Virus record (IMG/VR): IMGVR_UViG_3300021256_000003 | Coordinates: 1-64,000 of that record | DNA length: 64,000 nucleotides | Origin: a virus | Lineage: Duplodnaviria; Heunggongvirae; Uroviricota; Caudoviricetes | Direction: 5' to 3' (one strand) | In this document: positions 2,506 through 64,000 of the stretch, in pieces | How positions within the stretch are numbered: the stretch's first letter is position 1 | Layout of the letters: each line of letters starts with the position of its first letter | The notes under the pieces: generated by a model | Seen by the model: the letters and a program-made list of their open reading frames with translations, nothing else | What the model was told of the DNA's origin: nothing | Database searches by the model: none | Position numbers and translations under genes: made by a program

Positions 2506-3106
2506 TAATTTTATTCAAATTAATTCTTTAATTAACAACTCTTTTAGTAAAGTACCAGATAAATCTGATGCTTACTATCATTTACAAATTCTACAACGAA
2601 AGAAAGAAAATCCCAATTCAGGATCAAATTCTAAATTAATTAAAGCTTATTTGATTGATGAAAATCATTCAATAGACTATTATAAAGATCGTATTATAAG
2701 ATATTGTAATGAATTTAATGCAAGAGCTTATATTAACCCTTCTCCAAAGTCTAAGCGAGCAACTGCTATTCAAATGTTAAATGAAATAGCTGATTGTTTT
2801 CGAAAGAATGATTTTAATTATCTTCAGAGATTATGGGATTCATCTGCTGGAAAAGTAGGAGCTATCGATAAATATTGGGTAATTGATTGTGATTATTCCG
2901 ATACTTTTAATGATAGAACTATTAACGATGTTGTTAATTTTATAGATCGAGAATGTATGCCTGAAGGTAGTAAATTTGTTGCGTGTATTCCAACTAAAAA
3001 TGGAAAACATATTATAACAAAACCTTTTGATTTGCAACATTTTAAAACTGTGTATCCTGATATTGAAGTACATAAGAATAATCCTACTGTACTTTATATT
3101 CCTTAA
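2498..3106 (+). CDS. hypothetical protein
   Basis: 202 aa ORF with no recognised motif. Confidence 0.45.
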   Translation: MVDNFIQINSLINNSFSKVPDKSDAYYHLQILQRKKENPNSGSNSKLIKAYLIDENHSIDYYKDRIIRYCNEFNARAYINPSPKSKRATAIQMLNEIADCFRKNDFNYLQRLWDSSAGKVGAIDKYWVIDCDYSDTFNDRTINDVVNFIDRECMPEGSKFVACIPTKNGKHIITKPFDLQHFKTVYPDIEVHKNNPTVLYIP

Positions 3107-4031: not shown

Positions 4032-4430
4032 GGGGATGACGTGGTTTTGACAGTAATTACAGAAGTATATAAGCATGTAGACCTCAATACTAAGCAAGTC
4101 TTAAAACTACTGGTAAATAAATTTAATTGGCAATAGCCATCGTAACATCATCAGCCTCTATAACGAGAGAAAAGCTGCCTGACCTGAAGAACAGTAAGGA
4201 TCAAGGACCTAATTTTATTAAGAATAGTTATCGCTTAATATATTATTAGGTTTGATAAGGTTAAAGGATAATTTGCAATTGTAATCTATCCGAATTATAA
4301 TTAAAGATTAGGATGTAGTATAAATGAATTTTGTTAATTTGCTAGTTTATACGAAACACTAAAATTAACTAAACATGTAGAAAGTATATCATGAATTATT
4401 TGGACTCGGGTTCGACTCCCGACATCTCCA
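4032..4430 (+). ncRNA. ssrA: tmRNA (ssrA), phage-encoded
   Basis: 5' end GGGGATGACGTGGTTTTGACAG compared with E. coli GGGGCTGATTCTGGATTCGACGGG. 3' tRNA-like domain GGACTCGGGTTCGACTCCCGACATCTCCA compared with E. coli GGACGCGGGTTCAACTCCCGCCAGCTCCACCA. Acceptor GGGGATG/CATCTCC includes a G3:U70 wobble, which is the alanine identity element. An internal tag-like frame ...NIISLYNERKAA ends at TGA 4180-4182. Confidence 0.8.
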
Positions 4431-4451
4431 CTAATAAAAAAAATAAAAAAA

Positions 4452-4685: not shown

Positions 4686-5202
4686 TATATTCTTTACATC
4701 AGACCCACACTTTGGACATATTAATTTACAAAAGAGTCTTCGTGGATTTGAATCTGATGAACTAATTATAGAAAATTGGAATAAAGTAGTACGTAGTAAA
4801 AAGGATAGAGTTTATGTTCTTGGCGATTTTTGTATGCAAAAACCATCTGTTATTCGAGCAATTTTGCCAAAATTAAAAGGCGAAATTATTTTAATAGGCG
4901 GAAATCATGATAATTTACCTTGTAGTCGAGAATTTATGAGACAAGGTATTCCTATTATAGGATCACTAAATCTTCATGACCTTATATTTACGCATATTCC
5001 AATTCATCCTACTCAACTTGAATTTGGATTAAAAGGAAATGTTCATGGACATATTCACGTTGAAGGAAATATAGAAGGAAGAAAATATGCCCCACAAACT
5101 ATCACTGATCCTCGATATTTTAATGTAAATCTTGAATTTCATAACTATCAATTAGTTTCAATTGATACTATTGATAAATATTATCAACAATTAAATAAAT
5201 AA
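4678..5202 (+). CDS. calcineurin-like metallophosphoesterase
   Basis: Motifs SDPHFGH, VLGDFC and GGNHDN correspond to GDxHG / GDxxDRG / GNHE. Confidence 0.7.
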   Translation: MGNIFFTSDPHFGHINLQKSLRGFESDELIIENWNKVVRSKKDRVYVLGDFCMQKPSVIRAILPKLKGEIILIGGNHDNLPCSREFMRQGIPIIGSLNLHDLIFTHIPIHPTQLEFGLKGNVHGHIHVEGNIEGRKYAPQTITDPRYFNVNLEFHNYQLVSIDTIDKYYQQLNK

Positions 5203-5204
5203 CT

Positions 5205-5702
5205 ATGCTCGGTTTACTTTTTATCTTCATAGGAGTTACAATAACTAATGTAATCACCTATACGTTAAAATCTATTATTACTATTAAGGGTAATAAGTTA
5301 TCTGCTGCATTTATAAATGCAATTAACTCTGCAGTATATATGTTACTTATTATTTATACTGTAAGTGACTTACCTATGTGGATAAAAGTTGTAACAACTA
5401 TGATATGTAATTTTGTTGGAGTTTATATAATTAAGTTGTTAGAAGAAAAAACACAAAAAGATAAATTGTGGAAAGTAGAAGCAACAATTAAATTATATGA
5501 TAAAGATAAAATTATTAATTCTCTACGCGTACACAATCTTCCATGTAGTTATTTTCCTATTACCAACCCTAATGCAAAGATGGGAGACCGAATGGAAATA
5601 AACATATATTGTAGAACCCAACAAGAATCTAAACTAGCTAAAGAAGTTTTAGATGCTTATGATACTAACTATTTTGTAGCTGAAAGTAAAACGTTAATCT
5701 GA
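5205..5702 (+). CDS. membrane protein
   Basis: 165 aa with three N-terminal TM helices. Confidence 0.4.
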   Translation: MLGLLFIFIGVTITNVITYTLKSIITIKGNKLSAAFINAINSAVYMLLIIYTVSDLPMWIKVVTTMICNFVGVYIIKLLEEKTQKDKLWKVEATIKLYDKDKIINSLRVHNLPCSYFPITNPNAKMGDRMEINIYCRTQQESKLAKEVLDAYDTNYFVAESKTLI

Positions 5703-6139
5703 TGGATAATCTTGACTGGATTACTAGATTGAATGGGTTATGTAAATCTCTTGATCAGGTTTACCGAATTAACAGTGGTGGTTGTGCAAAAGTAGCTTAT
5801 TATATAGCAAAGGAATTACATAAGCAACATATACCCTATGCTATAAAGGTTTATTTTGGAAACGATTTAACAAAAAAAGATAAACGTAAATTATCTAAAA
5901 CAGGACCTTTTAATAGTACAATTGATAAATATTATTGGACACATTTAGCTATTGTAGTTCAAAATAAGACAATTAATAGCTATTTTAGTAATTCTTATGT
6001 TGTCATAAATACTCCACATGATCTTCGATGGTTAAAGGCTTTTATAGATAATCATGAGTTTAATCCAATTTATGGAACTTCTAATAATCATATTGTTAAA
6101 TCTTACATTAAAGAATTTTTTAAAAATAATATAATATGA
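5702..6139 (+). CDS. hypothetical protein
   Basis: 145 aa ORF. Confidence 0.4.
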   Translation: MDNLDWITRLNGLCKSLDQVYRINSGGCAKVAYYIAKELHKQHIPYAIKVYFGNDLTKKDKRKLSKTGPFNSTIDKYYWTHLAIVVQNKTINSYFSNSYVVINTPHDLRWLKAFIDNHEFNPIYGTSNNHIVKSYIKEFFKNNII

Positions 6140-6960: not shown

Positions 6961-7656
6961 ATGGAAAAGAAAACTTCAATAACAGTTAGTGCGTTTTCTG
7001 ATTTGCATGGAAATCTCATTAACATCCCTGAATGCGATTTAGCTTTTATGTGTGGAGATTTCTCTCCAGTACAATATGATCGTAATTTAATAGCAGTCGC
7101 AATGTGGATACAGAATTTTATGATTCCTTGGCTTAAAGAGCAAAAGAAAAATTACGATAAATTTATCTTTATTGCAGGGAATCATGATTTCATTTGTGAA
7201 TCTGAAGAATGGAAAGACTGGTTTCAAAATCAGTTAAAAGAAAATGGTCTTGGAGACTCTGTAATTTATTTAGAGGATTCAACTTATAACTATAAAGGAA
7301 TTGACATTTATGGATGTCCTCATTCAGAGATATATGGTTGGGCTTTCTACAGTGGAGATTATAAGGATTACATTCCATCTCCCCAAGCTGACATTATGTT
7401 AGTTCATGCCGCACCAAATATTGGAGGATTAGGAGATACAATACTAGGAGGTTATCCTAGATCATTTGGATCTAATTGTCTTGTAAATGGAATCACTACT
7501 CCTTGTTTAAATCTTCAATATCTATTTTGTGGACACATTCATGGAGGAAGTCATAGACCTTACAAACATGAGAATATCACTATGTATAATGTTTCTATCC
7601 TTGATGAACAATATCAAGTACATTATGAACCTTTAACTACGTCATTATGCTTTTAG
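6961..7656 (+). CDS. calcineurin-like metallophosphoesterase
   Basis: Motifs SDLHGN, CGDFS, IAGNHDF and GHIHGG. Confidence 0.65.
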   Translation: MEKKTSITVSAFSDLHGNLINIPECDLAFMCGDFSPVQYDRNLIAVAMWIQNFMIPWLKEQKKNYDKFIFIAGNHDFICESEEWKDWFQNQLKENGLGDSVIYLEDSTYNYKGIDIYGCPHSEIYGWAFYSGDYKDYIPSPQADIMLVHAAPNIGGLGDTILGGYPRSFGSNCLVNGITTPCLNLQYLFCGHIHGGSHRPYKHENITMYNVSILDEQYQVHYEPLTTSLCF

Positions 7657-11929: not shown

Positions 11930-12714
11930 TAGGAACTGATCCTGAATTGTTCCTTGTAAGTCAGAAAACAGGTAAAGTAAAATCAGCAGTACGAGTTATT
12001 CCTGGAACTAAAGAACATCCCCATAAGATTAAAGAATTTGGTGATGGATTTGCTGTACAGACTGATAATATTTTGGCAGAGTTTAATGTTCCGCCAGTTA
12101 ATTCCCAAGAAGCATTCGTTCATAATATTATGAGAATGCAACAACACATTAAAGAAATGGCACAAGCGAAGAATCCTGACTTAGATATTAAGTGTATGGC
12201 TAGTGCGCATGTACCGAAGAGCGAATTACGCAGCAAACAAGCAAAATTGTTTGGCTGTGATCCTGACTACAATATCTATACTGGTGAACAAAATGAAATA
12301 CAGCGTATTCCTGAGAGTGATTTACGTTCAGCTGGATTTCATTTGCATCTAGGATATAACAATAATAATATAGATAATTCAATGAATATATTGTTTTATC
12401 TTGACTTTTATTTAGGAGTTCCTAGTGTACTTATTGATCCCGATACTGAAAGAAGATCACTCTATGGTAAAGCTGGATGTTTCCGACTTACTTCTTATGG
12501 TCTTGAATATCGTAGTCTTTCATCATATATGATGAAAGATGAAAAACATTTAAGATGGATTTGGGATCAAACTATACAAGCAATACAGGCTTATAATCAT
12601 GGTGTAGCACTTCCTGAAGCTAGACATGTTGTTAATTGTATTAATAATAATGATCAAAAGTTAGCTCGAGATCTCTGCAAATATTATAAACTATGTGTGG
12701 ATTGTTTGGAATAG
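11896..12714 (+). CDS. carboxylate-amine ligase, GCS2 (YbdK-like) family
   Basis: N-terminal LIGTDPELFLV (GxExEFxLV-like) and AGFHLHLGY (GxHVHVG-like). Confidence 0.5.
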   Translation: MLKTHRITEFLIGTDPELFLVSQKTGKVKSAVRVIPGTKEHPHKIKEFGDGFAVQTDNILAEFNVPPVNSQEAFVHNIMRMQQHIKEMAQAKNPDLDIKCMASAHVPKSELRSKQAKLFGCDPDYNIYTGEQNEIQRIPESDLRSAGFHLHLGYNNNNIDNSMNILFYLDFYLGVPSVLIDPDTERRSLYGKAGCFRLTSYGLEYRSLSSYMMKDEKHLRWIWDQTIQAIQAYNHGVALPEARHVVNCINNNDQKLARDLCKYYKLCVDCLE

Positions 12715-13949
12715 TAAGTTCTTCTCCAAGAACTTTAGATTTAAGAGCGTTTTGTACGCTCGGTGTTATGAATGATTCTAGAGGAGGTGATTCTTGTGGT
12801 ATCTCTCTCGATGGTAATATTGAATATGGTTTTGGTAAAGAAAGTGCTCTTTTTATCGATTTTATGAGAGTTTCCAAAACATTATTTAAACGGAATCGAA
12901 TCAAAGTAGCATTAGGACATTGTCGTAAAGCTTCTGTCGGAGGAGTTACCCTAGAGAAAGCACAGCCAGTTAAAGTCTTTGATAAAGATGGAAATCTTAG
13001 TATGATCGTTATTCATAATGGAACTATTCATAATTATCAAGACTTAGCCGATAGGTATCTTCCTGGAGAAGATATTTCTGATTTATCTGATTCTCAAGTT
13101 ATGGCTCGGATTTTTCAGAAAGGTCATTATTCGGTGTTGAAAGAATATCGAGGTGGTGGAGCTTTTGTTATTCATGACTTAAAGAAAAATACTGTTTATC
13201 TGTTTAAAGGAGCATCTAAAGCTACTGAATATGCTAAAGAAATTACTGAAGAAAGACCTCTTTTCTGTTGCTATGATAAAGATGCTTTTATTTTTAGTTC
13301 TTTAGCGTATCCATTAGTTGGATTATATCCTAAGAACAAAATCTATCGTATTCCTTGTAATACTCTTTATAAAGTTCATAATGGTAGACTTGTTAAACTT
13401 GAGGTTTTAGATAGGTCTGAATGTTTGCAAAGTAAACCTACAGTTGTAACTGTTAATTCTTATTCTGGCTTCTATCAAGACAGATATATTGATTTTAATG
13501 TTAAAACTGGACGTTATAAGTTAGGAAAGAATTATCTTACCGGAGAACAATTCTTTTCTGACTATGGATATCATTATGATATAAAGAGTCAATGGGCTAA
13601 TTCTTATTGGTTCTGGGGAGGATATATGCTTCCTGGACAGAAATCTTATGAAGCTGTACTTAAATATAGTACAGAGTGCAAGGATCCTCAAAAGGCATTA
13701 CAACTTGCAAAAGCATTAACTTATCTTCCATTTGATGAAAAGGGGTGCTGGATGGAATCCTATGAAGATGGTTCTTTTCATGTTGTAAAAGACAATAAGG
13801 TATCATTTCCTTTGAGTAGGAACGAACTGCATATTAAGAATGGTAGAGCTGTTATGACTTCATATTTGAGTACAATGGATGCTACTGTTTTTAATGATTT
13901 ATCTGATGATATGATTCAAAAAATTGTAAACAATGTATGCCGTAAATGA
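12693..13949 (+). CDS. class II (Ntn) glutamine amidotransferase domain protein
   Basis: N-terminal MCGLFG nucleophile and NDSRGGDSCG, corresponding to HRGPDxxG. Confidence 0.65.
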   Translation: MCGLFGIVSSSPRTLDLRAFCTLGVMNDSRGGDSCGISLDGNIEYGFGKESALFIDFMRVSKTLFKRNRIKVALGHCRKASVGGVTLEKAQPVKVFDKDGNLSMIVIHNGTIHNYQDLADRYLPGEDISDLSDSQVMARIFQKGHYSVLKEYRGGGAFVIHDLKKNTVYLFKGASKATEYAKEITEERPLFCCYDKDAFIFSSLAYPLVGLYPKNKIYRIPCNTLYKVHNGRLVKLEVLDRSECLQSKPTVVTVNSYSGFYQDRYIDFNVKTGRYKLGKNYLTGEQFFSDYGYHYDIKSQWANSYWFWGGYMLPGQKSYEAVLKYSTECKDPQKALQLAKALTYLPFDEKGCWMESYEDGSFHVVKDNKVSFPLSRNELHIKNGRAVMTSYLSTMDATVFNDLSDDMIQKIVNNVCRK

Positions 13950-15141
13950 ACTTACAAGAAGATTTGAAGATTATTCAAGTTTAGTTAGATGTGCTGTGGC
14001 ATATGAGAATGGTATTATAGAATTTGGCTACGTTAATCCGAAAGAGAACTTATGTGTGTATTGCTATGATGATCATGGAAAGTTTTTAGCTAGATATAAT
14101 TCTTTAAAAGACTGTTTGAACTTTAATAGAGAATATGGTATATATACTTTTGATAAGGTTCCTAATGCAAACATTTATGCTGCTGGAAATTTTCCATATA
14201 CTTTTACTAAATACTATAATACTCGATTTTTGAGTGATACTTTTCAGAAATGGCAAGAAAATTACCATAGCATTCAGTTTAAATATGCTGACGAAATGCC
14301 TTATACTTTTGGGTTAGAATTTGAGACTAGTGGAGGATATATTCCAGAGCATGAACTATTTAATTTAGGATTAATTCCTTTAAGAGACGGTTCTATTAGA
14401 GGTCTTGAATATTCTACAATTGTATTAAAGGGGCAACAAGGATTAAACACTCTATACGAAATGACTAAATGTTTGCGTAAATATACAATCTTTGATAAAG
14501 AGTGTTCGTTACACATTCATTTAGGCAATTGGAAACTTGATGAATCTACTATTTTAAAGCTGAATAATTTATTTAGTTCAGCTTCTTTAGGACAATATCT
14601 CCCAAGAGATACTTATAATACTGAACGATATAAAGCAACTGGTAAGAGCTATTGTAAGAAGAATGCTAGCTACAGTACTTTTAATGATTTGTATCGTTCT
14701 TTAGTAGGTAGATCTTATTATGGAGATCTGTATCAACCTCATCCTGATGATACTAATGGAACTAGAAAATGGAATATTCATTCAAGATATAAGGCATTGA
14801 ATCTTATAAATGCTTTATGTTACAATTTTGGTAAAACTGCAGAATTTAGAATATTGAGGCCGACTTATAATTTTGATAAAATTATTTGTTGGTTATATGT
14901 TTTCGCTGCGTTTATCAAATATGCCGAAAATGGATATCGAGTGACTACTTCTGTTGATAAGATTCTTGAAAGAGTTTACTCTCCAGAACTTGCTACTATT
15001 CTTAAACAGTTCTTAAAATTAGAACAAGAGGTAGTAGATAAGCAAACAAATAACGGAGACTATATTGGTGCAGATATTTCATTAGAAGACTCAATTATCA
15101 CTAAAGAGAACTTATCTCCTGATAACAATTTCTTCTATTAA
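13933..15141 (+). CDS. hypothetical protein, co-operonic with the amidotransferase/ligase genes
   Basis: 402 aa ORF whose start overlaps the upstream gene. Confidence 0.5.
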   Translation: MYAVNELTRRFEDYSSLVRCAVAYENGIIEFGYVNPKENLCVYCYDDHGKFLARYNSLKDCLNFNREYGIYTFDKVPNANIYAAGNFPYTFTKYYNTRFLSDTFQKWQENYHSIQFKYADEMPYTFGLEFETSGGYIPEHELFNLGLIPLRDGSIRGLEYSTIVLKGQQGLNTLYEMTKCLRKYTIFDKECSLHIHLGNWKLDESTILKLNNLFSSASLGQYLPRDTYNTERYKATGKSYCKKNASYSTFNDLYRSLVGRSYYGDLYQPHPDDTNGTRKWNIHSRYKALNLINALCYNFGKTAEFRILRPTYNFDKIICWLYVFAAFIKYAENGYRVTTSVDKILERVYSPELATILKQFLKLEQEVVDKQTNNGDYIGADISLEDSIITKENLSPDNNFFY

Positions 15142-15687: not shown

Positions 15688-16155
15688 ATGCTTAAAGATA
15701 CAATTGATAATGATATACAATCTGCAATCAAATCTAATGCTGAAGAGTATAAAATTAATACTTTGCGTGCTATTAAGACCGAGCTTTTAAATACAGAGAA
15801 AGGTATTGGAGGCAAAAAGCCAACTACAATTACTGATGTTATTGAAGTTAGTGTCCTTAATAAAATGTGCAAGGAGCGTAAAGAAAGTGCTGACCAATAT
15901 CGAAAAGGTGGAAGAGAAGATCTAGCTATTAATGAAGAGAAAGAAATTTCTATTATTAAAACTTATCTTCCAGAAATGCCTTCTGATGTGGAAGTTATAA
16001 GTTATATATCATCGTGTATAGAAAATTTAGCAAAAGAGCATCAAATTTCTTCTCGCGATACTGGTACTATTTTGAAATCTGTTAAAGAAAAGTATCCATT
16101 TATTAATGGAAAATTAGTTTCAGATACTATTGCAGCTTACGTTAAATCTCACTAA
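15688..16155 (+). CDS. GatB/YqeY domain protein
   Basis: ESADQYRKGGREDLAINEEKEISIIKTYLPEMPS...GKLVSD closely matches the YqeY/GatB C-terminal domain consensus. Confidence 0.75.
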   Translation: MLKDTIDNDIQSAIKSNAEEYKINTLRAIKTELLNTEKGIGGKKPTTITDVIEVSVLNKMCKERKESADQYRKGGREDLAINEEKEISIIKTYLPEMPSDVEVISYISSCIENLAKEHQISSRDTGTILKSVKEKYPFINGKLVSDTIAAYVKSH

Positions 16156-16966: not shown

Positions 16967-17048
16967 GCAGGCATGGCGTAATTGGTAGCCGCGCAAGAAT
17001 TAGAATCTTGTTCTGAGAGGAGTGGGGGTTCGAGTCCCCCTGCCTGCA
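16967..17048 (+). tRNA. tRNA-Leu (anticodon TAG), class II
   Basis: Acceptor GCAGGCA/TGCCTGC, anticodon stem CAAGA/TCTTG with loop ATTAGAA, long variable arm, T arm GGGGG-TTCGAGT-CCCCC. Confidence 0.8.
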
Positions 17049-17146
17049 CATTACTATCATGAAGAATGGTTCGTCTGCACAAACAGGGGAGTAGTAAAAT
17101 TCTGCGGTAATGATATCCCTAATTTAACCCATTAGGGATTAATATG

Positions 17147-17229
17147 TCGAGTTGCTAGAGTGGTCGAATAGGGTAGTCTGCAAAACTATCGGTGAATAGC
17201 CCACATTGGTTCGAATCCAATACTCGACT
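17147..17229 (+). tRNA. class II (Ser-like) tRNA with anticodon GCA (Cys codons); isotype uncertain
   Basis: Acceptor GTCGAGT/ACTCGAC, 3-bp D stem with Ser-like D loop AGTGGTCGAA, anticodon stem GTAGT/ACTAT with loop CTGCAAA, 15-nt variable arm, T arm ATTGG-TTCGAAT-CCAAT. Confidence 0.6.
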
Positions 17230-17305
17230 CTCAGTAAGACTGTTGTAGATAATTAATTAGATTAGATTAAATTTAACTTTTAATTAATTAAAAAAAATAA
17301 ATCAA

Positions 17306-17995
17306 ATGAAGAAAATCACAAGTATTTTTATGGTACTGACTGTGGCTATGTGCATGATGTTTACTGCTTGTAATGGTTGTAGCCAGAAAAATGAACCTGT
17401 TAATGAGATTACTTATCCCGTGGCTGGTTTAAATGTGGAACGTGTTACCGCCACTGACTTTGAGTACATGACTGCCAACTATGGTAATGACTATCGTTGG
17501 TACGAATGCTGTATCGATGCTAAAGATTGGATTGATGAAAGCGATACATTCTATGTCAACGGTATTGCCAACGTATTCTATAAGGTGTATTTCAATGAGG
17601 ATAGTACGTCTGGTACTGCAAAGGTATATCTGCTTGCACACGTTGGTGATGTATTTACTATTGACTCGACAGAGGGTATTTGGGTTGGTGATGAGCCTAT
17701 GAACGAATTTAATCCTATGAAGATTAATTTTGCTCAAGCTTATGATGCGATGATGAGAACAAATTGTATTAAACCTCATAGTCGTCACTGTGTCCTTCGT
17801 AAGGAACTTGGCCCTCTAGACGCTGCTCCTCAATATATCTTTGGTAATCAAGAGATTCAAGTATATGTGGATGCCCAGAATGGCAGTGTAAATGTTGACA
17901 ACCCAGTGTTTCCTGTGGATGCTAATGACATTCCCGCTGATCGTTCTGAGAATGACAGCACTCTAAAGAAACTAGGCTACGCATTTAGTTGGTAA
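17306..17995 (+). CDS. lipoprotein (moderately GC-rich)
   Basis: Signal peptide plus lipobox MMFTAC. Elevated GC relative to neighbours. Confidence 0.55.
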   Translation: MKKITSIFMVLTVAMCMMFTACNGCSQKNEPVNEITYPVAGLNVERVTATDFEYMTANYGNDYRWYECCIDAKDWIDESDTFYVNGIANVFYKVYFNEDSTSGTAKVYLLAHVGDVFTIDSTEGIWVGDEPMNEFNPMKINFAQAYDAMMRTNCIKPHSRHCVLRKELGPLDAAPQYIFGNQEIQVYVDAQNGSVNVDNPVFPVDANDIPADRSENDSTLKKLGYAFSW

Positions 17996-18027
17996 TTCTA
18001 TAGCTCAGTTCAAATACTGAGCATCTT

Positions 18028-18104
18028 GTATCCGTAGCTCAGCTGGTATTTAGAGCACAGGATTTTTAATCCTGGAGTCGTGGGTTCGAACCCCACCGGA
18101 TACA
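18028..18104 (+). tRNA. tRNA-Lys (anticodon TTT)
   Basis: Acceptor GTATCCG/CGGATAC, anticodon stem CAGGA/TCCTG with loop TTTTTAA, T arm GTGGG-TTCGAAC-CCCAC. Confidence 0.85.
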
Positions 18105-18113
18105 CTAACTAAT

Positions 18114-18186
18114 ACTGATGTAGCTCAGTGGTTAGAGCAGATGCCTTATAAGCATCAGGTCGCTGGTTCAAGCCCAGCCATCAGTA
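18114..18186 (+). tRNA. tRNA-Ile (anticodon TAT, reads AUA)
   Basis: Acceptor ACTGATG/CATCAGT, anticodon stem GATGC/GCATC with loop CTTATAA, T arm GCTGG-TTCAAGC-CCAGC. Confidence 0.8.
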
Positions 18187-18204
18187 CATTAAAATTTTTA
18201 CACA

Positions 18205-18741
18205 ATGAAATTAAAATATAGAATACAACGAAGTATTGGAAATATCTATAAAAAGATATTTGGTTATAAATTTGTAAATTTTAGTTCATTAAAAGAATAT
18301 CATGATTGGTATAATTCTAAAAAGTTTGAATTCTATTGTAAGATAGGATTATTTAATGGACACTATGATAGTCCAATACAAACAAGTCTTAAATTAACAA
18401 GTCCTGATATGTTTGATTGGAATGAAATTAAACAAGAGCATGGTCCAAATTTAAAACTTATCTGTGAAGAATGTCAAGATAAGTTCGGTAAGCTTTGTGT
18501 TTTTAATTCTAGTTATACAAATAAATCTATAATACTTACAGCTGGTAAGTTTACTGGTATAGAGATAACACATGAAGATTATTACTATATAGTTGAATAT
18601 GGTGATGGTCATACTAGTTATAGCAGTTGTGCAGGAAGAATATTATTTATAGATGAAGATAAATCCACTAAAAAACAAATTGATACTGAATTAGGACCTT
18701 TAACAATATTTGAATATCAAGGAATAAATTATGTAAAATAA
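18205..18741 (+). CDS. hypothetical protein
   Basis: 178 aa ORF. Confidence 0.5.
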   Translation: MKLKYRIQRSIGNIYKKIFGYKFVNFSSLKEYHDWYNSKKFEFYCKIGLFNGHYDSPIQTSLKLTSPDMFDWNEIKQEHGPNLKLICEECQDKFGKLCVFNSSYTNKSIILTAGKFTGIEITHEDYYYIVEYGDGHTSYSSCAGRILFIDEDKSTKKQIDTELGPLTIFEYQGINYVK

Positions 18742-18769
18742 GTCCTTTTTCAATATATATTCTTCTTTT

Positions 18770-19020
18770 TTATTAAAAAATACTTGGAGGTAGGCTTGGA
18801 AGCAGCCATCCTTTAAAGAGTGACATTCAACAGTACCACCCTTTATACAAAAGGGGTATAAAGTGTGTTGGTACACAATGTTGAGTAAACGTAAAACGTG
18901 ACACTAACATATTGTTGAGTAATCCTGTGAGAGTCGACGAGAGCAGGTCAACGCAATATGTAACTTTAAGTTTGCAATGAAAGTGGTCTTTGGTGTAATA
19001 ACACACAAGTATTTTTTTTT
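18770..19020 (+). ncRNA. candidate structured non-coding RNA in the tRNA cluster (unknown family)
   Basis: 250 nt with no ORF and locally elevated GC. Several stems, for example CTTTATA-loop-TATAAAG and GTACCAC...GTGTTGGTAC. Ends in a T9 run just before a tRNA. Confidence 0.3.
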
Positions 19021-19024
19021 CAAT

Positions 19025-19096
19025 GCTTCTGGAGTCTAGTTGGTAAAATGCGGGATTTGTACTCCTGAGTCCACAGTTCGAATCTGTGCAGAAGCT
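19025..19096 (+). tRNA. tRNA-Thr (anticodon TGT), imperfect D stem
   Basis: Acceptor GCTTCTG/CAGAAGC, anticodon stem CGGGA/TCCTG with loop TTTGTAC, T arm CACAG-TTCGAAT-CTGTG. The D stem has 3 of 4 pairs and G at position 8. Confidence 0.5.
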
Positions 19097-19124
19097 CTAT
19101 ATAATATATAAAATATAATTAAAT

Positions 19125-19724
19125 ATGAAAGTTGATTGGAATAATGAAAAGGAAAATTTAGCTCGTATGATTTAGAATAAAGAATCATATGAATCTATAG
19201 GAAGATATTATAGTGTTTCTGGAACAACTATTAAGAAAACTGCTATCAAGCTTGGAATCGAACTAGAACCAAGAAGAACAATAAATAAGGTTGAAACATT
19301 CTAGAAAGGAATAATAAAGACACATCGTTATTGTTTAAATTGTGGTAAAGAATTAGAAGGACAAAAAAAGTCTAAAAATATTTTTTGTGATTGTACATGC
19401 CAACATGAGTATGAATATAAAGAATATATTCGTCGTTGGAAAAATGGTGAAGAAAATGGTTTGAATGGTGAATATGGTATATCAAATCACATTAAACATT
19501 ACCTTTTCGAAAAACATAATTGTAAATGTGAAAAATGTGGTTGGGGTAAAACAAATGAATTCACTGGTACAATACCATTGGAAATACATCATATAGATGG
19601 CAATTATAAAAATAATAAAGAGGAAAATCTTCAATTACTTTGTCCAAATTGTCACTCATTGACAGAAACATATAAATCACATAATAAAAAAGGTAGACAA
19701 GGAAGAAAAAAATATTATAAATAG
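19125..19724 (+). CDS. HNH homing endonuclease (N-terminal HTH + Zn finger + HNH) containing two in-frame TAG codons
   Basis: A single frame runs from ATG 19125 to TAA 19722-19724, interrupted only by TAG at 19173-19175 and 19302-19304. It contains IGRYYSVSGTTIKKTAIKLGI (HTH), CLNCG...CDCTC (Zn finger) and HHIDGNYKNNKEENLQLLCPNCH (HNH). The ORF track shows only the last 87 aa. Confidence 0.6.
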
Positions 19725-19795
19725 CCGTTACCCTAATTGGTTAAGAGATTAATTTAATCAGCCTGTCGTGGGTTCAAGTCCCTCCGGCGGCTCAA
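19723..19795 (+). pseudogene. tRNA-like remnant (good T arm/acceptor, no foldable anticodon arm)
   Basis: GTGGG-TTCAAGT-CCCTC T arm and partial acceptor pairing GCCGTTA/..CGGCGGC. The central region folds only as GATTA-ATT-TAATC. It directly abuts the HNH gene stop. Confidence 0.3.
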
Positions 19796-19800
19796 CTTAT

Positions 19801-19874
19801 AGTTCCGTAGTTCAGTTTGGTTAGAATACATGCCTGTCACGCATGGGGTCGCGGGTTCGAGTCCCGTCGGAACT
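19801..19874 (+). tRNA. tRNA-Asp (anticodon GTC)
   Basis: Acceptor AGTTCCG/CGGAACT, anticodon stem CATGC/GCATG with loop CTGTCAC, T arm GCGGG-TTCGAGT-CCCGT. Confidence 0.85.
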
Positions 19875-19883
19875 GCTTATTTT

Positions 19884-19956
19884 GGACAGATAGCTCAGCT
19901 GGTAGAGCGCGGGCCTGAAGAGCCCGGCGTCGTTGGTTCAAATCCAACTCTGTCCA
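19884..19956 (+). tRNA. tRNA-Phe (anticodon GAA)
   Basis: Acceptor GGACAGA/TCTGTCC, D arm GCTC..GAGC, anticodon stem CGGGC/GCCCG with loop CTGAAGA, T arm GTTGG-TTCAAAT-CCAAC. Confidence 0.85.
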
Positions 19957-20070
19957 CAAGTAATATTTAACGAAAAATAAGTCTAGAAAATAGTAGTTCA
20001 CGCCTACACCACTGGCACCAGTTACCCTGACCAGGATAGACTAAGAGTGTAAGTCGTCTAGACTTTATAC

Positions 20071-20141
20071 TGGAGTGTAGTTTAGAGGTAAAATGTCGCT
20101 CTCCAAAAGCGAAGTCGGGGGTTCGATTCCCTCCACTCCTG
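20071..20141 (+). tRNA. tRNA-Trp (anticodon CCA)
   Basis: Acceptor (T)GGAGTG/CACTCCT, anticodon stem TCGCT/AGCGA with loop CTCCAAA, T arm GGGGG-TTCGATT-CCCTC. Confidence 0.7.
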
Positions 20142-20155
20142 CTAAATTTTAGGAA

Positions 20156-40090: not shown

Positions 40091-40630
40091 GTGAAATAGA
40101 AAATTTATAACACAGCCTGTATTTGTACTGATAAAAACGGTACTGAAACAGAGTATCATTCACTGGAAGAAGCTTCTGAAGCTACTGGACTATCAGTGAG
40201 AACAATTAAAGGAAGATGTGTAAACTATGGAAAAACTGGACGCGATGGTAACATTTTTCGATGGGTTGATGAAACTACTAAAAAAGCTTTTAAAGCAAAA
40301 CAATCTAGAACAAAAGGAAACGCTTTTGAATTAAAGATTGTAAATGATTTAAAAGACATTGGTTACGATGTATGTAGTTCTAGATCTGAATCTAAGAATT
40401 TAGATGATAAGAAAATAGATATTTTTGATAGAAGAGGTGATTTACCTGTATATATTCAATCAAAACATACAGCTTCTCAACCTAATTATTATAAAATTGA
40501 AGAAGAATGCCCGTTAAAAGATAAACCGTTTATTATTTGCTGGAAAAAATCATTTAACGATGGGACTCCTAGTCCAGAACCAGTAGTAATACTTCCTTAT
40601 ACGTATTTTCTAAATTTAATTAAGAAGTGA
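40091..40630 (+). CDS. NUMOD/IENR-motif DNA-binding protein (homing-endonuclease-like), possibly with an in-frame TAG at 40097-40099
   Basis: The ORF track begins at GTG 40196, but the same frame upstream encodes KIYNTACICTDKNGTETEYHSLEEASEATGLSVRTIKGRCVNYGKTGRDGNIFRW. This is the same repeat seen in the GIY-YIG protein. It is preceded by GTG AAA TAG. Confidence 0.4.
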
Positions 40631-44949: not shown

Positions 44950-45141
44950 TATGAAGTATATTATTAGATTTATATCATCTGAGAACAGTATCCTGTCAGA
45001 ATGGGTTGATGCTAATTCGGAAACAGAAGCAATAGATATTATACGTGCAGAAAATACAGATGTTAAACAAGTCTTATCAATAATAGAAGTATAACTATTA
45101 TGATTAAATAGATTTAGTATTTTGACAGTAATAAACATCGA

Positions 45142-56815: not shown

Positions 56816-59800
56816 TTAATTTTCTCTCATTGATTGTAAGATGGGTTTAACTGTTCTGACCGCAGCCATATTTTCAGAAGTTGCATTTAATAATGTTTTC
56901 TCTCCTGTAAATACATCAAATCCATCTTCAATAACATTTCTAAGAGCACCAAAAGAATATGGTCTCCATTCAATTAATGGCTCACCAATAGAATTTATAA
57001 AATTAAAGTCTTGGAATGAACGTGTAATAGTTTGATTAATAAAATGAGAAGATACATAACTAATTGCATTACCCATATCTCCTTTATCTTTATTAAATTC
57101 CTTCTTTTCATCATCATCCCATTTTCCTAATAACAATGCTACTAAATGTCCAACAACTAACCACATAAACATATCTATTGCTAAATGCTTTAAGTTAGAA
57201 CGATAACAGGTTCGTAGATTATCGTTAGGATTATTCCATAATTCTTGCCAAGCTTCTTGATATCCATTTTCTTTAACAGAATCATAGAAGTGAGCTAGAG
57301 TTAATAAAATACCTTCTTGATGCTGTCCTTCCCAACGCCGTACTTTAACGCCACTACAATTAGGGTCATCAATAGTTACAAATCCTTTACTTAAATCAAT
57401 TTCTCCATTTTCATCTTTGGTATAATATAACTACTAACCATTCTCCTAATAATCCACAAATCTTCCTAATAATTTAGAACCACCAGGAGCAAGATATTGA
57501 TTCTTTTTAGCTGACCAATATGTTTTCATCTACATGTATAATCCGCCTAAAAACATATAATGTACAAGTGATTTATCTTCTTTATTATAATAACCATATA
57601 CATTATCGGCAATAGACTTCATACTTTGAGATTCTCTATTAGAATATGCTCTAGGTAAATCATCTCCAAGTTTAAATAAACTACCATCAGGATTTACTAC
57701 ACCTTCGTTAATAAACTCTTTTGCAGCAGCAAAATAACGAGCATAAGATTCACGTTCCTGCTCATTAAATTGACTTAAAGATTTGCCTTGCTTTTTGGCT
57801 TGGACATAATCTTTATAACGAGCATCTTTAGAGAAATCGTATATTAACTCACCATTATCATTTAAAGTATGAGCTTCAAAGGAACCATCACGTCTCATCT
57901 ATGCTTCAAAGATAGTCATTCGATTATAGTAATCAGGACGGGATGTAAAACGAAATGCTAAGTCATATACATGAGTAAACCATCCTTTGTCTGACGATAG
58001 TCTGTTTGCATACTAATCGGCGTCCATATCATTAATACCATATAACTCATTAATTCTTGACAATACAGTAGGAGTTAAATGACTGTGGAAAAGTTCAGTT
58101 TCAACATGTTTAGCAGAATCCCACATATGTTTAGATGTAAATGCATCAGTTCCATCTGGTTTCTTAATAATAAGACCTAAATTTTTCCAAATACCATCAA
58201 CTCTCTAATATGTCCATTGAACAGGGCTAAATCCTAATGCCAGCAAAGAGGCTACTGATCTGGCTCTACCAGTCAATCGCATTAATTTAGATATTTTATC
58301 ATCAGATAAGTTTTGATTGTGTACTTGTACTTTAACAATATTATCAAGATAATCAAGAGTATCTTTAAAGTTCTCTTTATCAGTAGGATTTATAAAGTTA
58401 CCTTGGTGAGCAATTGCAATTGCACACGCTTTCATTTTAATCAATTCAGAATCAAAAGCATTCTTTCTAGCATACTAATAAGAATGATTTAAGAGTAATG
58501 TTTCAAGATTATGCTCATAAGCATTAGCTCCATATTTACGAAGCATTCTCATTCGAGTAGTTTCATCGTTTCCAGCATCAAATACTACAGATGCTTTATA
58601 AATATCATTATTAGTTTGTTGTGTTTCTGCATCTGTAGATGCTATAAAATCCATAGTATTAGATAGGGCATTTTTAGGAGCTAAATTCTAAACTAATGTT
58701 TTTAATGAACCTAAAAGATTGTCAGTCTTTAATTTAGAACCAGTCGATGCAGCTAGTAAAGGAACTCGATAATATCTTCTATCACCAGAATTTTTCCACA
58801 TTTCTAAGTTAGCAGCATCCTTTGGCCATCTATCTCTGTTTATAGTATCAAGAACATACTCTAAGAACTTCTTTTTAACTCCTGTTAAAGTATTAGGATT
58901 AACAAAAACAAAATCTCCATCAGGAGTTACTTCTGTCATATCCATATATAAACTAGTTTGATTACTTAAGTACTCCTATACAGTATTAAACCCAACAGAT
59001 TCTTTTAATTCTTTTACATATTTATTTACTGTATAACTTTGTTTTAGAATAATATCTCTTACTTTCTAGTTTACATTTTTAACACTCACAGATACAGTAT
59101 TAAGCAGCTATGAACTAAAGTTACCAGGATTTTCAAGATTTAAACCTTCAGCACCTTCACGAAGAATTCTTCTAAACGTCTATAACCATTTGTCAGAATC
59201 TTTAGTTTGTTGTCTCATAATAACTCCATTAATGTCATTATAGGCAACAGCTGCTTGATTATATAATTGGATAATAGGATCAGCTAAAGAATTACTATCA
59301 CGAGCTACATTAATAGTTCTATTTGGGTAGAGTCTATTAATTGTCTACATTATATCCTCTAACTCACTTTTTATTTTTAAAGGATTTGTTTCTCCAGCCC
59401 AATCAAATCCTGCGCTTGTTAATTCTTTTTTAATTAAATTATATTCAGGAGCACCACTATTCATAATTTCATTTATTTTTAAACGAAAATAATCAAGTTG
59501 ACTTAATAACTTAATTTTACCAGAATTAAATTTATCTTCTTCAAGAAGACTATGTTTAATTAGAGCATTCCAGTTATATAAATATTCTGAATTATAAATA
59601 GGCATTAGTCTTTGAGTAGAAGGATTTAAAACATTAATACTTTCAAATTGAGGTGTTCCTGCCCAATCTAAATTATTAAGAACAAGCATAGCCTCCATTC
59701 CTTCAATATTGCCTCTATTGGCTTTTAAGATTAAAGAGTTAGCATTAGAAGACTCCTCAATATCTTTAGCAAATGATCCATTTATATTAGTTCTACCTTC

Positions 59801-61618
59801 AGAAAATTTATAATTGTAATGTAAATCTCCGTTTACAATTTTAAATGCGACACAAGCTTTAGTTTGAATATTTTGTAAAACAACTATTCCGAAGTTTTTT
59901 GCAGTAGGCAGATCAATCACTTCGTAATTACCTTTACAATAAGGCTTCATTAGGTTTTCTAGATTTGCTTTATCAAATCCAGAATCTTTAAATGAAGCAT
60001 ATCGATATTCAAATGGTTGCCCTGACTTTACTGCTTCGTTAAAACTATCAATAAACGCATCAACTCTTTGGACATTTCTATCATTTATAGAACGTAACTA
60101 TTCCTAGACCTTTTGTACTAACTAAACTTTAGCAAAGTCTAAATTATTATTTATCGGAATAACAATTGGATCGTCGCTATAAGGTGTTTTATATTCTAAA
60201 GTTCCTAAAGCAGTGGGCTCAAAAGCTTTTTCTTCTTTTAATTTTTCACTAACCTACTCTTCTGACATATTTCTATCAGTTAAATGGTTAGGAAACCAAA
60301 TAGCCATTTGTTTAGTGACTTTTTCAATTAAATTAGAAGAAGTAGCAGAAACTTTATTTTCTGCGGGTATAAATTTATCAAGAGTATCATTAATATTTTC
60401 AGAATTAACTTCTGTTAATACCTATTGGATAACAGGGCTATCTTCAGATAAATCATTCTGTTTATAAGATAGACCGTCATAAGTATAACTTAATTTTTCT
60501 GGATCAGTTTCACCAGTATCGTTTAAATGAAATCCCTTTAATGTAATAGGCACAATAATACATTGTCCACCTTGAGTATTAACTCCAAATTTTCTTAGAA
60601 TACGTTGATAAGTACCAAGCTATAAAGTAAATGCACGTTTCTTTGCAGAGTTATATTGGTCGTAGCTTTTTGGTGAAGTTTTATAGTCGACAATGTGTAC
60701 ATATCCATTTTCATCAACAACTAATAAGTCAATTACACCGTGTAAAGTATGACATCCTTTATACTCATTAATATCGCCAGCAATATCTAGTTCAGGAAAG
60801 AATCTAGCTTTCGCTCCGAATTTCTGCTGTAGATTTACACGAAAATCCTACAACATTTTAACCATTTCTAAAAACTAGGATTCACTAATAAGATCCCCTT
60901 TCTTTATAGAATGGTCATAAATACTTAAAGGATCAGATTTCCAACGTTCATATTGAAGTCTAGCATAATCTGGATTAGCAGATTCCTCTTCAAAAACATA
61001 TTTATCTCCATTTTTAGAAAATAACCATTCAGATACAGAGTGTAAGGCTGTACCTATCTAACCTTGTTGTTTCCATTTTCTTTCAATTACATCTTTCCAT
61101 TTATTGTATGTCTCATCAGAATATGTTTGTTCTGGATTTAGAGTAGTTCCAGGATCGCTTATAGCTAGATATTCATTAATAATTTGAATTTCGTCTTCAG
61201 TAAATGTTCCGGGATTAATTGTACCAGAGACTGTACGAGGTTTCCAAGCATCAAGTCTTCTATTCCAATATTCTTCACCTCTAAATTCAGGAGTAATTAC
61301 ACTACCATCTTCAGTACGGAATGCAGCGATAAATGCATTAACACCCATCACAGGAGGTTTCTCTTCAATATTCATAGTACCGTCATCAGCATATTCGACA
61401 GTGCGATTTTCATAATATTGTCTACTTTCTTCTTTAGCTCTTTTACCAGCTTCAGTAACAGCGCCTTGAATTAAAGATACATTAGTTGCTCCTGTAGCAT
61501 TCATTTCAAAAACTACATCGCCTATCTATTCCATTAAAGGAAGCTTTTCACAGATAAAATCTGCTAATTGAACTTCGTTTCCTATTAAATTTCCTTTATA
61601 AGTATATGTACATTTCAT
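56816..61618 (-). CDS. very large late (virion/structural?) protein, about 1600 codons, translated with TAG as a sense codon
   Basis: Six track fragments (56816-57172, 57530-57898, 58205-58444, 58688-58945, 59345-59950, 61058-61504) all share one frame. Each checked break is TAG: 57530, 57899, 58013, 58205, 58688, 59345, 61058 and 61526. It terminates with TAA at 56816-56818. The upstream limit is TGA at 61646-61648, giving a candidate start at ATG 61618 or 61534. Confidence 0.55.
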
Positions 61619-62673
61619 ATGCAATCTTCTCTTAATTCTCCGCGTTCAATTAATCTTTCTTTAGCATTTGCAATAATTCTATGTAATGCGGCATCGTCTA
61701 CATAAGATTGAAACTTATTTTGCATAGTTGAAGAATTAACCATTTGTCCTAAATTATATAAAGACTATTCACTCCAGATTTCTTTAGGCATGGCTCTTAC
61801 ACTATTATCACCCATTAGGATAGTATCTAAAGTTCTAGATACTTCATAATTTAGTTGATAAAGTGTTTCCTAGTCTAGATTATTTAAATAGCTTGGTAAT
61901 CCACTTAGATATTTAGAATATTCTTCTACGAATAATTCTTCAAGAACATCCATCTAGGATCTATTTGGATATAATTTAGCTCTTTCAGTTAACTGCTCGT
62001 TATTTTGGAGGGTCTACACTAAATTATAATAAGTATTTGGCTATTGAAATTTTATAGATCCAAGGAAAATATGTAAAAGCTCGTGAGTCGGAGAATGTAT
62101 ATCAGCTATATCAGTATTTACATAAATTTGTCCATTATATATAAAAGCACTAGCCCAATTAACTTGAGGGATATTGCCTAGAATTTCCTTTGCTTCATTA
62201 GTAGTAATTGAAGTAGTTTGAATGCCATAACATTTAGCTAACTTCTATAACTATTGTTCTATAAAAATTCTAGAATCCTCTGTAATAGTTTTAAGGTCAG
62301 TTTGCTTAAAATCCAGTGGATTAGGTCTATTATTTATAGATAACACCACCTAGTCATCTACAATAGAGTAATCTATTAATAAGTCTCGATATATATTATT
62401 TAATTGTTGTATAGCCTCTGCAACAGTTGAAGTATTAGTTAATTCAAGTAAGTTAGAAGCAGGTATAGAATCTAATTTAGAGAGGTGTAAGTTCTATCTT
62501 AATCCTTCTGATGAATCTATACCTCCCATCTCATCTAATTGAGGCCAACGTCCGTTATGCTCTTTTAGATATTGTATAACTTTATAACGTAAATTGGACT
62601 AGGAAAGTCCAGGGACCTTGTTTTGAAGATCCCTGAACTTATCTAATCCGGGTAATTCACAATATGTATTCAT
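61585..62673 (-). CDS. late protein (about 362 codons) with about 11 in-frame TAG codons
   Basis: ATG at 62671-62673 in the minus frame runs to TAA at 61585-61587. In-frame TAGs lie at 62602, 62494, 62350, 62245, 62251, 62041, 62014, 61954, 61870, 61765, 61582 and 61564. The translation is protein-like (for example NGRWPQLDEMGG). Confidence 0.5.
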
Positions 62674-62676
62674 TTA

Positions 62677-64000
62677 TTAACAGCCTTTACTTTCATTTTC
62701 AACTGTAGAGCGAACCACATCTCTTAACACTCTAACATCTAAAACTAACGATGCTCGTTTAGTAGGATTGCTATAATCAAATGCAGGACGAAGATATGAT
62801 GGAGAATCATTAATAAGTTTATTAATAACTTTTTGTCGAATTTCCTCTGTTGCTCCTAAAGATTCACCATTAATCGATGTAATCTTACCTGTACTTAAAT
62901 CAACAGTGGCAATCCATCTTTCATCGCCTTCTCCTGTAACTTGAGTAGTAACGTTTTCTCCTCTATAACCAGGATATATTAAATACTGATAATTCCAAGT
63001 CTGATGTTCTCTGTCTAATGACATTGTAACTGGAGAAAATTCTCTCCAATATTCATCATACGGTGTTATTGTTTCATCCTCTTCACCAATAATATCAGCA
63101 ATATCTTCATAGGATTCTTCTCCTATATCCATATCAGATGAAGCTTGTTTTCTTCTAGCCTCTTGTTCTTTAGCAATACTTTCTTCAGAGCGTTTTAATG
63201 TTGGACCTAGTCTATTTCTATCCTAAATCCATGCATATTCGCCTAATGTAGAATAACGACTGCGCTTCATAGCACACCAAGAAATAATTTCTGAATCAGA
63301 AAGATATACATCTCCAGTAGCATCCTTTTGTGCAATAAACGTATTATATTTATTCTGAAGATTACTATCAACGTAATCAAACATTGCCATTAAAGATTGA
63401 TGTCCTTTTGCTCCACCATAAACATACATTGAATATAAATAGAAGGCATCAGCAAAATTAGCTAAAGAATTACTAGTATTTGGAAGTTTAATTCCTCTTA
63501 ATAAATTAAACGCAGCAGCAATTTCTAATAGTCTAGATTCCTCTAAAGAGCCGTGTTTAGGCATTAAATCTACATCTAAACTAAATACTGAAGAAGCAGC
63601 TTTAGAAGGTAAGTTATTCATATCAACCATTCTTAAGTGCTTTACAAATTCATTGTCTGAATAGAATTTCTTTAAGAATGGAATTGCTACTACTTCCATA
63701 TAACGTTTAAATGAAGCTAACCCAGCTTCAGTTCCTAATGGTAAAACCATATTTTCATTAGAAGAAACTACTTTGATGTTCTATCTAAAACCAGGAGTTC
63801 CATTATATGTAAAATATTCAAATTGAGCAGGAATACCAAAAGTAATATTATCAGTAGATAACCACTCTAGTAAATATTTCATATTAATAGCTCTATTAAG
63901 ATTTCTGATGTAATTTTCTCTATCAGTATTATTTTGTAGTCCTAGTTTTCTGGACCACTCTTGAGTATTATAACGTTCAATGGCTCTAGCTCTAGAAGAG
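62677..64000 (-). CDS. late protein, 5' part beyond the window, TAG-containing
   Basis: Fragments 62677-63132 and 63223-63750 share a frame and are joined by TAG at 63223-63225. A further in-frame TAG lies at 63781-63783. Ends with TAA at 62677-62679. Confidence 0.5.

Follow-up and report, generated by a model that had tools for sequence, protein, structure and literature searches.

The HNH endonuclease gene in the tRNA array

We analyzed a 64,000-nucleotide stretch of DNA from a virus of the Caudoviricetes (IMG/VR record IMGVR_UViG_3300021256_000003, positions 1 to 64,000; hereafter the window), in which a plus-strand gene for a predicted HNH endonuclease carries TAG codons within its reading frame. 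The gene sits between tRNA-Thr and tRNA-Asp in an array of transfer RNA (tRNA) genes. The features that concern it are the following.

16967..20142, plus strand: tRNA array holding the HNH gene, in the order Leu, Cys, Lys, Ile, Thr, HNH gene, Asp, Phe, Trp (ARAGORN and Rfam)
19125..19736, plus strand: open reading frame (ORF) of the HNH endonuclease with TAG read as sense; 203 amino acids, C-terminus ...KKYYKQPLP, stop codon TAA at 19734-19736
19125..19274, plus strand: N-terminal three-helix helix-turn-helix (HTH) domain, residues 1-50
19173..19175, plus strand: TAG 1, codon 17, at the end of helix 1 of the HTH domain
19302..19304, plus strand: TAG 2, codon 60, in the linker from the HTH domain to the zinc ribbon
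19332..19400, plus strand: Cys4 zinc-ribbon-like site (C70, C73, C88, C92), invariant in 33 aligned sequences
19461..19724, plus strand: the sole standard-code ORF in the HNH frame, 87 amino acids, TTG start
19527..19658, plus strand: HNH nuclease domain (H155, H156, N168, H177) with flanking CxxC pairs (C135/C138, C173/C176)
19722..19724, plus strand: TAG 3, codon 200; a stop in the standard code, Gln in code 15

Translation confirmed that the frame opened by ATG 19125 is interrupted by TAG only, at codons 17 and 60, as a first-pass annotation of this stretch had stated. That annotation had also closed the gene with a TAA at 19724; the codon at 19722-19724 in fact reads TAG, and under code 15 the ORF gains four codons (QPLP) from codon 200 on before the first in-frame TAA at 19734-19736, which brings the TAGs in the gene to three (codons 17, 60 and 200). 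We found no frameshift and no TAA or TGA before 19734, and no in-frame ATG after codon 17. The 203-residue product has been deposited as P0154 (code-15 gene calls on two 174,954-bp contigs), and the 87-residue product as P0155 and P0156 (standard-code gene calls). The latter lacks the HTH domain, the first Cys4 site and W105, and its ORF (19461..19724) is, as judged from its content, a gene-calling artefact.

A search of 5.8 billion proteins with the code-15 translation as query returned 5712 homologues (best E=1.7e-118), nearly all of them 193-203 amino acids long, whose alignments span 95-100% of the query and run across both internal TAGs. The complete HNH architecture proposed at first pass (HTH, zinc finger and HNH) thus holds for the table-15 product, which aligns over its full length with relatives of about 200 residues. 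PF01844 is matched at residues 135-178 with 26.9 bits against a cut-off of 21.4, and in PHROGs the protein matches HNH endonuclease families down to 1e-18, several of which align from residue 6-8, again across both TAGs. The copy in the window keeps 33 out of 33 invariant alignment columns, including C70, C73, C88, C92, W105, C135, C138, H155, H156 and H177. H155, H156, N168 and H177, all invariant in the alignment, form the catalytic His...Asn...His signature of PF01844, and C135/C138 and C173/C176, invariant or nearly so (32-33 sequences), form its zinc-binding CxxC pairs. The AlphaFold2 model of the 203-residue protein has a mean predicted local distance difference test score of 84.7 and is confident on either side of TAG 1; a sequence search of solved structures returned no relative at E<=0.01. 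The region 19125-19736 is thus predicted to be an intact, free-standing gene for an HNH homing-type endonuclease.

The closest relative, P0001 (locus L001, from a Logan assembly), shares 89% protein identity with the window copy and carries TAG at the same two codons (17 and 60). Between these two copies, the Nei-Gojobori ratio of nonsynonymous to synonymous divergence (dN/dS) is 0.30 for the whole gene and 0.27 for codons 1-60, with a significant synonymous excess in both cases (p=2.4e-4 and p=0.029, respectively). Only about 21% of the possible single-base nonsense changes in the gene would yield TAG, hence three TAGs out of three stops has a probability of about 0.01.

TAG codons in the window and across the HNH family

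The window has a G+C content of about 30% and contains 11 tRNA genes and one transfer-messenger RNA gene (ARAGORN and Rfam), the latter at 4032-4431 with the tag peptide GNSHRNIISLYNERKAA. It is identical to a 174,954-bp ENA contig across the 600 bases compared, and a comparison of NrdD places it nearest to annotated crAss-like phages (cr116_1, 53%) and to the unannotated 121.6-kb gut phage MT835492.1. The source is a gut phage of about 175 kb with a crAss-like layout, where "crAss-like" describes architecture only. Positions 1-56,745 are nearly all plus-strand and encode NrdD, DNA polymerase, ligase, helicase, primase and dUTPase, and are followed by a block of the opposite orientation:

56816..63999, minus strand: TAG-rich block of three ORFs (1609, 352 and over 440 codons) that contain 24, 10 and 2 in-frame TAGs, respectively

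The minus-strand ORFs hold 36 in-frame TAGs against 79 CAA/CAG codons, and with TAG read as sense the longest ORF grows from 741 codons to 1610 while ORF coverage rises from 79% to 89%. These ORFs indicate that the phage reads TAG as a sense codon, and in the minus-strand block TAG is most likely decoded as Gln. We call this block late because of the analogy with crAss-like phages. Its ORF of 1600 amino acids (56816-61645, minus strand) has a weak PD-(D/E)XK/exonuclease-like region at residues 171-383 (phrog_1218, 4e-6), which recalls the nuclease inside the structural block of crAss-like phages described by Yutin et al. (PMC7886860).

The plus strand uses TAG very differently. Its 82 ORFs of at least 80 amino acids end in TAA (49), TGA (24) or TAG (9), and an in-gene TAG occurs in just two of them, the HNH gene and the gene at 40091 described in the next section; the other 80 have no internal TAG among 560 CAA/CAG codons. 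As a share of Gln-type codons, TAG makes up 3/7 in the HNH gene, comparable to 36/115 in the minus-strand ORFs (p=0.68), against 1/564 in the rest of the plus block (Fisher p=4.5e-6). In-gene TAG is accordingly not confined to the minus strand, as had been noted at first pass, and both plus-strand genes that carry it encode predicted nucleases. A motif scan of the window for further HNH, GIY-YIG or LAGLIDADG genes recovered the HNH gene alone. TAG-terminated plus-strand ORFs end at 7656, 8506, 12714, 16408, 23375, 32691, 37518 and 44135, with a TAA or TGA 0-21 codons on. We considered whether such downstream stops serve as a backup against late read-through, and rejected the idea: with the HNH gene counted, their median spacing is 3 codons after TAG ends versus 7 codons after TAA/TGA ends (p=0.11). 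Elsewhere in the window, adjoining class-II glutamine amidotransferase-like and amidoligase-like genes occupy 12693-15141 (PHROG 4e-11 and 9e-18).

MT835492.1 (our locus L178) has the same two-block layout as the window. Its plus block (1-62 kb) is almost free of TAG, while in its minus block a single ORF of 3401 codons holds up to 128 TAGs. When we surveyed plus-block ORFs of at least 200 codons for internal TAGs, three cases emerged, one of which is probably a gene boundary. The other two are endonuclease genes:

4925-5935 of MT835492.1, plus block: LAGLIDADG endonuclease, 1 in-frame TAG (Pfam 5.7e-11)
12551-13201 of MT835492.1, plus block: SegE-like GIY-YIG endonuclease in a tRNA array, five TAGs (Pfam 1.4e-9)

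We then scored in-frame stops inside the profile-aligned region of HNH relatives encoded at 80 IMG/VR loci. Most copies are uninterrupted. Those interrupted by TAG only are the window copy, L001, L040 (4), L079 (4), L043 and L044, and those interrupted by TGA only are L019, L081, L036 and L038. The in-frame TGAs sit on the invariant Trp columns W5, W105 and W140, while L040 and L079 have their TAGs on E/Q columns and on a column where 28 of 32 references show Q. The HNH genes of L019, L036, L038 and L081 lie near locus position 3000 with 2-4 in-frame TGAs each, next to same-strand ORFs that contain none, and form a TGA=Trp counterpart of the window. Such a code-matched stop pattern is what recoding predicts and what random decay would not be expected to give. 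It also bears out the first-pass suggestion that HNH genes circulate among recoded phages, since family copies match the local code, being TAG-only or TGA-only at each locus. In L044, L001, L019, L081 and L038 the recoded HNH gene lies among same-strand neighbours without recoded stops, while the neighbours of the L040 and L079 genes also carry TAG. As judged by these comparisons, the HNH gene is intact, its TAGs are conserved under purifying selection, and the recoding of its family follows the local code.

The residues that relatives carry at the TAG positions partly bear on how TAG is read. Opposite TAG 3, L002/L003 have a real CAG, which is followed by PLA and a stop (protein end KKYYKQPLA), and TAG 1 aligns to CAA (Gln) in L004, in a column that is variable in the family (K, N, S or Q). 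The check proposed in the first-pass annotation, whether the TAGs align to Gln or to another residue, thus gives Gln in these relatives at TAG 3 and TAG 1, and TAG 2 falls on a mostly-Asn column. Since the columns of codons 17 and 60 are largely not Gln, the reading of these two codons as Gln rests on other members of the family and on the literature.

The flanks of the gene vary among loci: L001 and the window have the upstream tRNA-Thr flank in common and differ in the downstream flank, whereas L002 has the downstream tRNA-like element in common with the window and a different upstream flank. In L004 the order is tRNA-Thr-like gene, HNH gene, tRNA-Asp; this copy (L004 1283-1885) is 71-74% identical and has a single TAA, with a 135-residue call from an internal ATG, and, in contrast to the TAG-bearing copies, a true N-terminal truncation or a pseudogene is probable here. 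A search for an HNH-less "empty site" with the 3' half of tRNA-Thr and the context of TAG 1 gave no exact match in IMG/VR or JGI metagenomes.

The primase-adjacent nuclease and the proposed timing of translation

The second gene with an in-frame TAG is located in the replication module:

40091..40630, plus strand: second TAG-bearing gene, directly downstream of the primase gene; predicted I-HmuI/NUMOD1-like DNA-binding domain plus PD-(D/E)XK/Hjc-like nuclease
40097..40099, plus strand: its start-proximal in-frame TAG, codon 3

Its frame opens with GTG AAA TAG (40091-40099), as was noted at first pass, where the product was described as a NUMOD-repeat protein and counted among the mobile endonucleases. 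The DNA-binding domain is indeed of the I-HmuI/NUMOD1 type, with the Pfam NUMOD1 match below threshold (17.4 versus 22.8 bits), but it is a single copy with no repeat, and the gene is not sporadically distributed as a homing endonuclease gene would be, since it adjoins the primase gene in 33 out of 33 loci. E80, D110, Q123 and K125 are invariant in the family, Hjc chains are matched weakly (E~0.01), and phrog_244 is matched at 7.6e-6; the product is thus a predicted PD-(D/E)XK/Hjc-like nuclease with an I-HmuI-like DNA-binding domain. Each of the 31 loci retrieved by way of the nuclease has the primase gene on its upstream side and orf175/orf341 on its downstream side. Both loci retrieved by way of the primase contain the nuclease as well (52% identity; start "MKK#LNTSV", where # denotes TAG), and the divergence of the nuclease tracks that of the primase. 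By these criteria, the gene belongs to the replication module and is conserved in the clade, which sets it apart from a recently mobile element. Standard-code callers reduce it to a 144-residue stump (P0121).

We compared 32 distinct homologues taken from IMG/VR and ENA; in 29 of them, a single TAG follows the initial ATG, at codon 3-6. The relatives start M-(A/V/S)-K-Q-K..., the "Q" being TAG in the DNA (L090, MVK#KTYNTA; L091, MAK#RAYNTA), and the shorter nuclease gene of MT835492.1 reads "MSKSN#NLNTA". The identity within the family is 38-68%, and after clustering at 60% the start-proximal TAG is found in 8 of 8 clusters. The residues flanking the TAG and the distance from it to (L/Y)NT both vary, and only 4 other TAGs occur in these homologues, versus about 190 CAA/CAG codons. 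Because the TAG is kept while its position and flanks drift, and other Gln codons are rarely TAG, selection seems to act on the stop codon itself and not on Gln. The conserved domain starts right after the TAG and no in-frame start codon follows it, although this does not hold universally, as the MT835492.1 nuclease gene has an ATG 44 codons on. Taken together, we give an even chance to the idea that the recoded stop has been selected to time the translation of nucleases encoded in the early replication module, as an "amber gate" in the family of the 40091 gene. With a gate at codon 3-6, neither the enzyme nor a truncated DNA-binding fragment would be made before suppression starts, and the recoding of HNH, GIY-YIG and LAGLIDADG genes in otherwise TAG-free blocks suggests that DNA-cutting enzymes are generally kept off in this way during early replication.

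We examined further start-proximal TAGs in the window and rejected them as gates. At 16106/16130 the sole homologue begins at an internal Met; at 49054/49081 homologues of 100-108 amino acids begin at the position of the TTG start; and at 45100 (NrdD), 40808, 20078 and 56323 there is a normal ATG just downstream or an overlap with a tRNA.

For the HNH gene, we propose with a probability of roughly 0.68 that it is an intact gene in the tRNA array whose TAGs are sense codons and whose enzyme is made only under amber suppression, later than the products of its TAG-free neighbours. Early in infection, a standard-code ribosome would stop after 16 codons in the HNH gene, or after 2 codons in the nuclease gene; once amber suppression is established, both the full-length HNH enzyme and the nuclease would appear. 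Since neither gene has an in-frame ATG past its first TAG, internal initiation could not bypass the stop, and it is this lack together with the stop after 16 residues that would make the HNH enzyme dependent on suppression. The TAGs of the HNH gene may have been tolerated and not selected. In crAss-like phages, TAG has been found by proteomics to be read as Gln (PMC9523058), and recoded codons cluster in late genes (PMC7886860; bioRxiv 10.1101/2022.06.29.495998). Following this published model, the HNH enzyme would be expected later than its TAG-free neighbours of the replication module, and late-only translation, the existence of a suppressor and the amino acid inserted at these sites are inferred.

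An explanation without timing, which we consider unlikely, is that TAG is a plain extra Gln codon with no regulatory effect, suppression being available whenever the mRNA is translated and the TAGs neutral; in a variant, they could remain from an earlier stay in recoded regions or phages, or from recombination with copies found there. The HNH TAG positions are scattered and unconserved beyond the pair formed by the window and L001. The TAG-bearing neighbours of the L040 and L079 homologues fit such a neutral origin, as does the mosaic appearance of the 3' third of the gene relative to L001 (dS 0.37 against 0.13), and a "soft" code switch has been argued for by the MgCod authors (bioRxiv 10.1101/2022.06.29.495998). 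However, if TAG were always usable, its avoidance by the other 80 plus-strand ORFs would go unexplained, as would the similar avoidance in the plus block of MT835492.1, endonuclease genes excepted. Moreover, a neutral codon would not behave as in the nuclease family, whose members keep the TAG at codon 3-6 although they are only 38-68% identical; in that gene, conservation specific to the codon and to its place near the start speaks for selection on the stop.

It is even less probable that the HNH gene is a decaying pseudogene with acquired nonsense mutations. Homing endonuclease genes often decay once they are fixed, a single transition turns CAG into TAG, and the relative in L004, with its TAA at alignment codon 13-15 and its call as a fragment of 135 amino acids only, may be such a case. 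Nevertheless, a decaying gene would hardly keep every invariant residue in a frame without frameshift, TAA or TGA, have both TAGs in common with an 11%-diverged copy at a dN/dS of about 0.3 on either side of them, hold TAG as its only stop (P~0.01), and belong to a family with one stop type per locus, on W or Q columns. Because of the shared TAGs, the low dN/dS, the lack of frameshifts, the TAG-only stops and the code-matched family, we do not regard the gene as a pseudogene. Finally, the case in which the real gene is the C-terminal ORF from TTG 19461, a minimal HNH protein that standard-code callers output as exactly that 87-residue product (P0155, P0156) and that the first-pass annotation had named as fatal to its own claim, is hardly credible, as the HTH domain, the invariant Cys4 site and W105 would be lost, the TTG falls within a conserved block that lacks an ATG, the 112 codons before it are conserved in protein sequence both in L001 and in thousands of relatives, and the family is uniformly 193-203 residues long.

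Several observations weigh against late, suppression-dependent translation of an intact HNH gene. Eight other plus-strand ORFs end in TAG, which indicates that TAG terminates there too and that suppression would extend these proteins. No promoter or terminator specific to the HNH gene was detected, and in the minus-strand ORFs PHROGs gave only a weak exonuclease-like match and no structural annotation. L001 is the only independent sequence that shares both internal TAGs, few substitutions underlie the dN/dS values (13 changes in codons 1-60), and codons 17 (K/N/S) and 60 (N) are not Gln in most relatives. Furthermore, no tRNA with a CUA anticodon was found by ARAGORN or Rfam in the window or in its flanks, 9.6 kb upstream (L085, 100% identical overlap) and about 9.7 kb downstream (L088), with about 90 kb of the 174,954-bp genome lying outside this range, nor was one found in all 121.6 kb of MT835492.1, which has 5 tRNAs. 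Recoding without a detectable suppressor does occur (Yutin et al., PMC7886860).

The tRNA genes number at least 21, the ones in the window being spread across 2069-27142, with ten more upstream (L085 188-6759) and none in the downstream stretch (L088), and none has a stop-codon anticodon. We also inspected a tRNA-like element at 19723-19798, directly after the HNH ORF (12-nt overlap), which has a good acceptor stem and T arm and degenerate D and anticodon arms, and which, among the HNH loci L001-L084, recurs only in L002/L003, again 3' of the HNH gene and 90% conserved. As a hidden TAG suppressor it was rejected: ARAGORN reports it only once the threshold is relaxed to 80%, calling it a "tRNA-Stop(tta)" that has two A.C mismatches, Rfam has no match at E<=1, the folding z-score is -1.7, and the predicted anticodon would read TAA, not TAG specifically.

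Comparison with known systems

Block-wise code assignment would miss single recoded genes in a dual-coded early block, and standard-code callers leave stumps of 87 and 144 amino acids in their place. The two genes add independent sequence-level support for the idea of recoding as a timing device and carry that idea beyond lysis and structural genes, to DNA-cutting enzymes. In addition, one homing-endonuclease family has adapted to three coding regimes (standard, TAG=Gln and TGA=Trp), which bears on how mobile genes cross code boundaries.

The nearest precedent is the TGA-recoded endonuclease of a group I intron in an early gene of Agate phages, for which Borges et al. (bioRxiv 10.1101/2021.08.26.457843) proposed that recoding blocks production until late. 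Like the HNH gene, it has an in-frame recoded stop in the otherwise unrecoded early part of a recoded phage, and a recoded endonuclease among unrecoded same-strand genes is likewise what we found in the window, L044, L001, L019, L081, L038 and MT835492.1. The two cases differ in the codon (TGA for Trp in Agate, TAG for Gln here), in setting (intron-encoded versus free-standing in a tRNA array), and in evidence (family-level codon enrichment versus positional conservation and dN/dS). The Agate work is reported to have appeared later in Nat Microbiol in 2022. The HNH gene is thus a further example of an already published idea. The start-proximal, position-biased TAG of the primase-adjacent nuclease, on the other hand, is not described in the Borges preprint, and its conservation is the newer and more testable result of the two.

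Block-wise recoding in gut phages (Ivanova 2014; Yutin 2021, PMC7886860; Pfennig/MgCod; Peters 2022, PMC9523058) shares with the window a TAG-rich strand block, a dual-code replication block and many tRNAs; however, in those studies recoding goes block by block, whereas here single recoded genes lie inside a dual-coded block. The spacing E80...D110...Q123-x-K125 of the 40091 nuclease resembles that of archaeal Hjc, from which the nuclease differs in the change of a catalytic E to Q, in the NUMOD-like fusion and in the conserved TAG at codon 3-6. T5 hegA/F-TflIV is free-standing in a tRNA region like the HNH gene and is 28-30% identical to it over 94% of the length (E~5e-9), a distant relationship, but it uses the standard code and has no in-frame stops. 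In T4 and its relatives, I-TevI, I-TevII, I-TevIII, segB and Aeh1 mobE lie in early/middle transcription units and are translated late only (PMC2988022), so that potentially harmful nucleases are gated post-transcriptionally. There the gate is an RNA hairpin that hides the ribosome-binding site on early transcripts, whereas the gate proposed here would be a stop codon that needs a suppressor; the parallel is thus one of logic, an analogy and not a homology.

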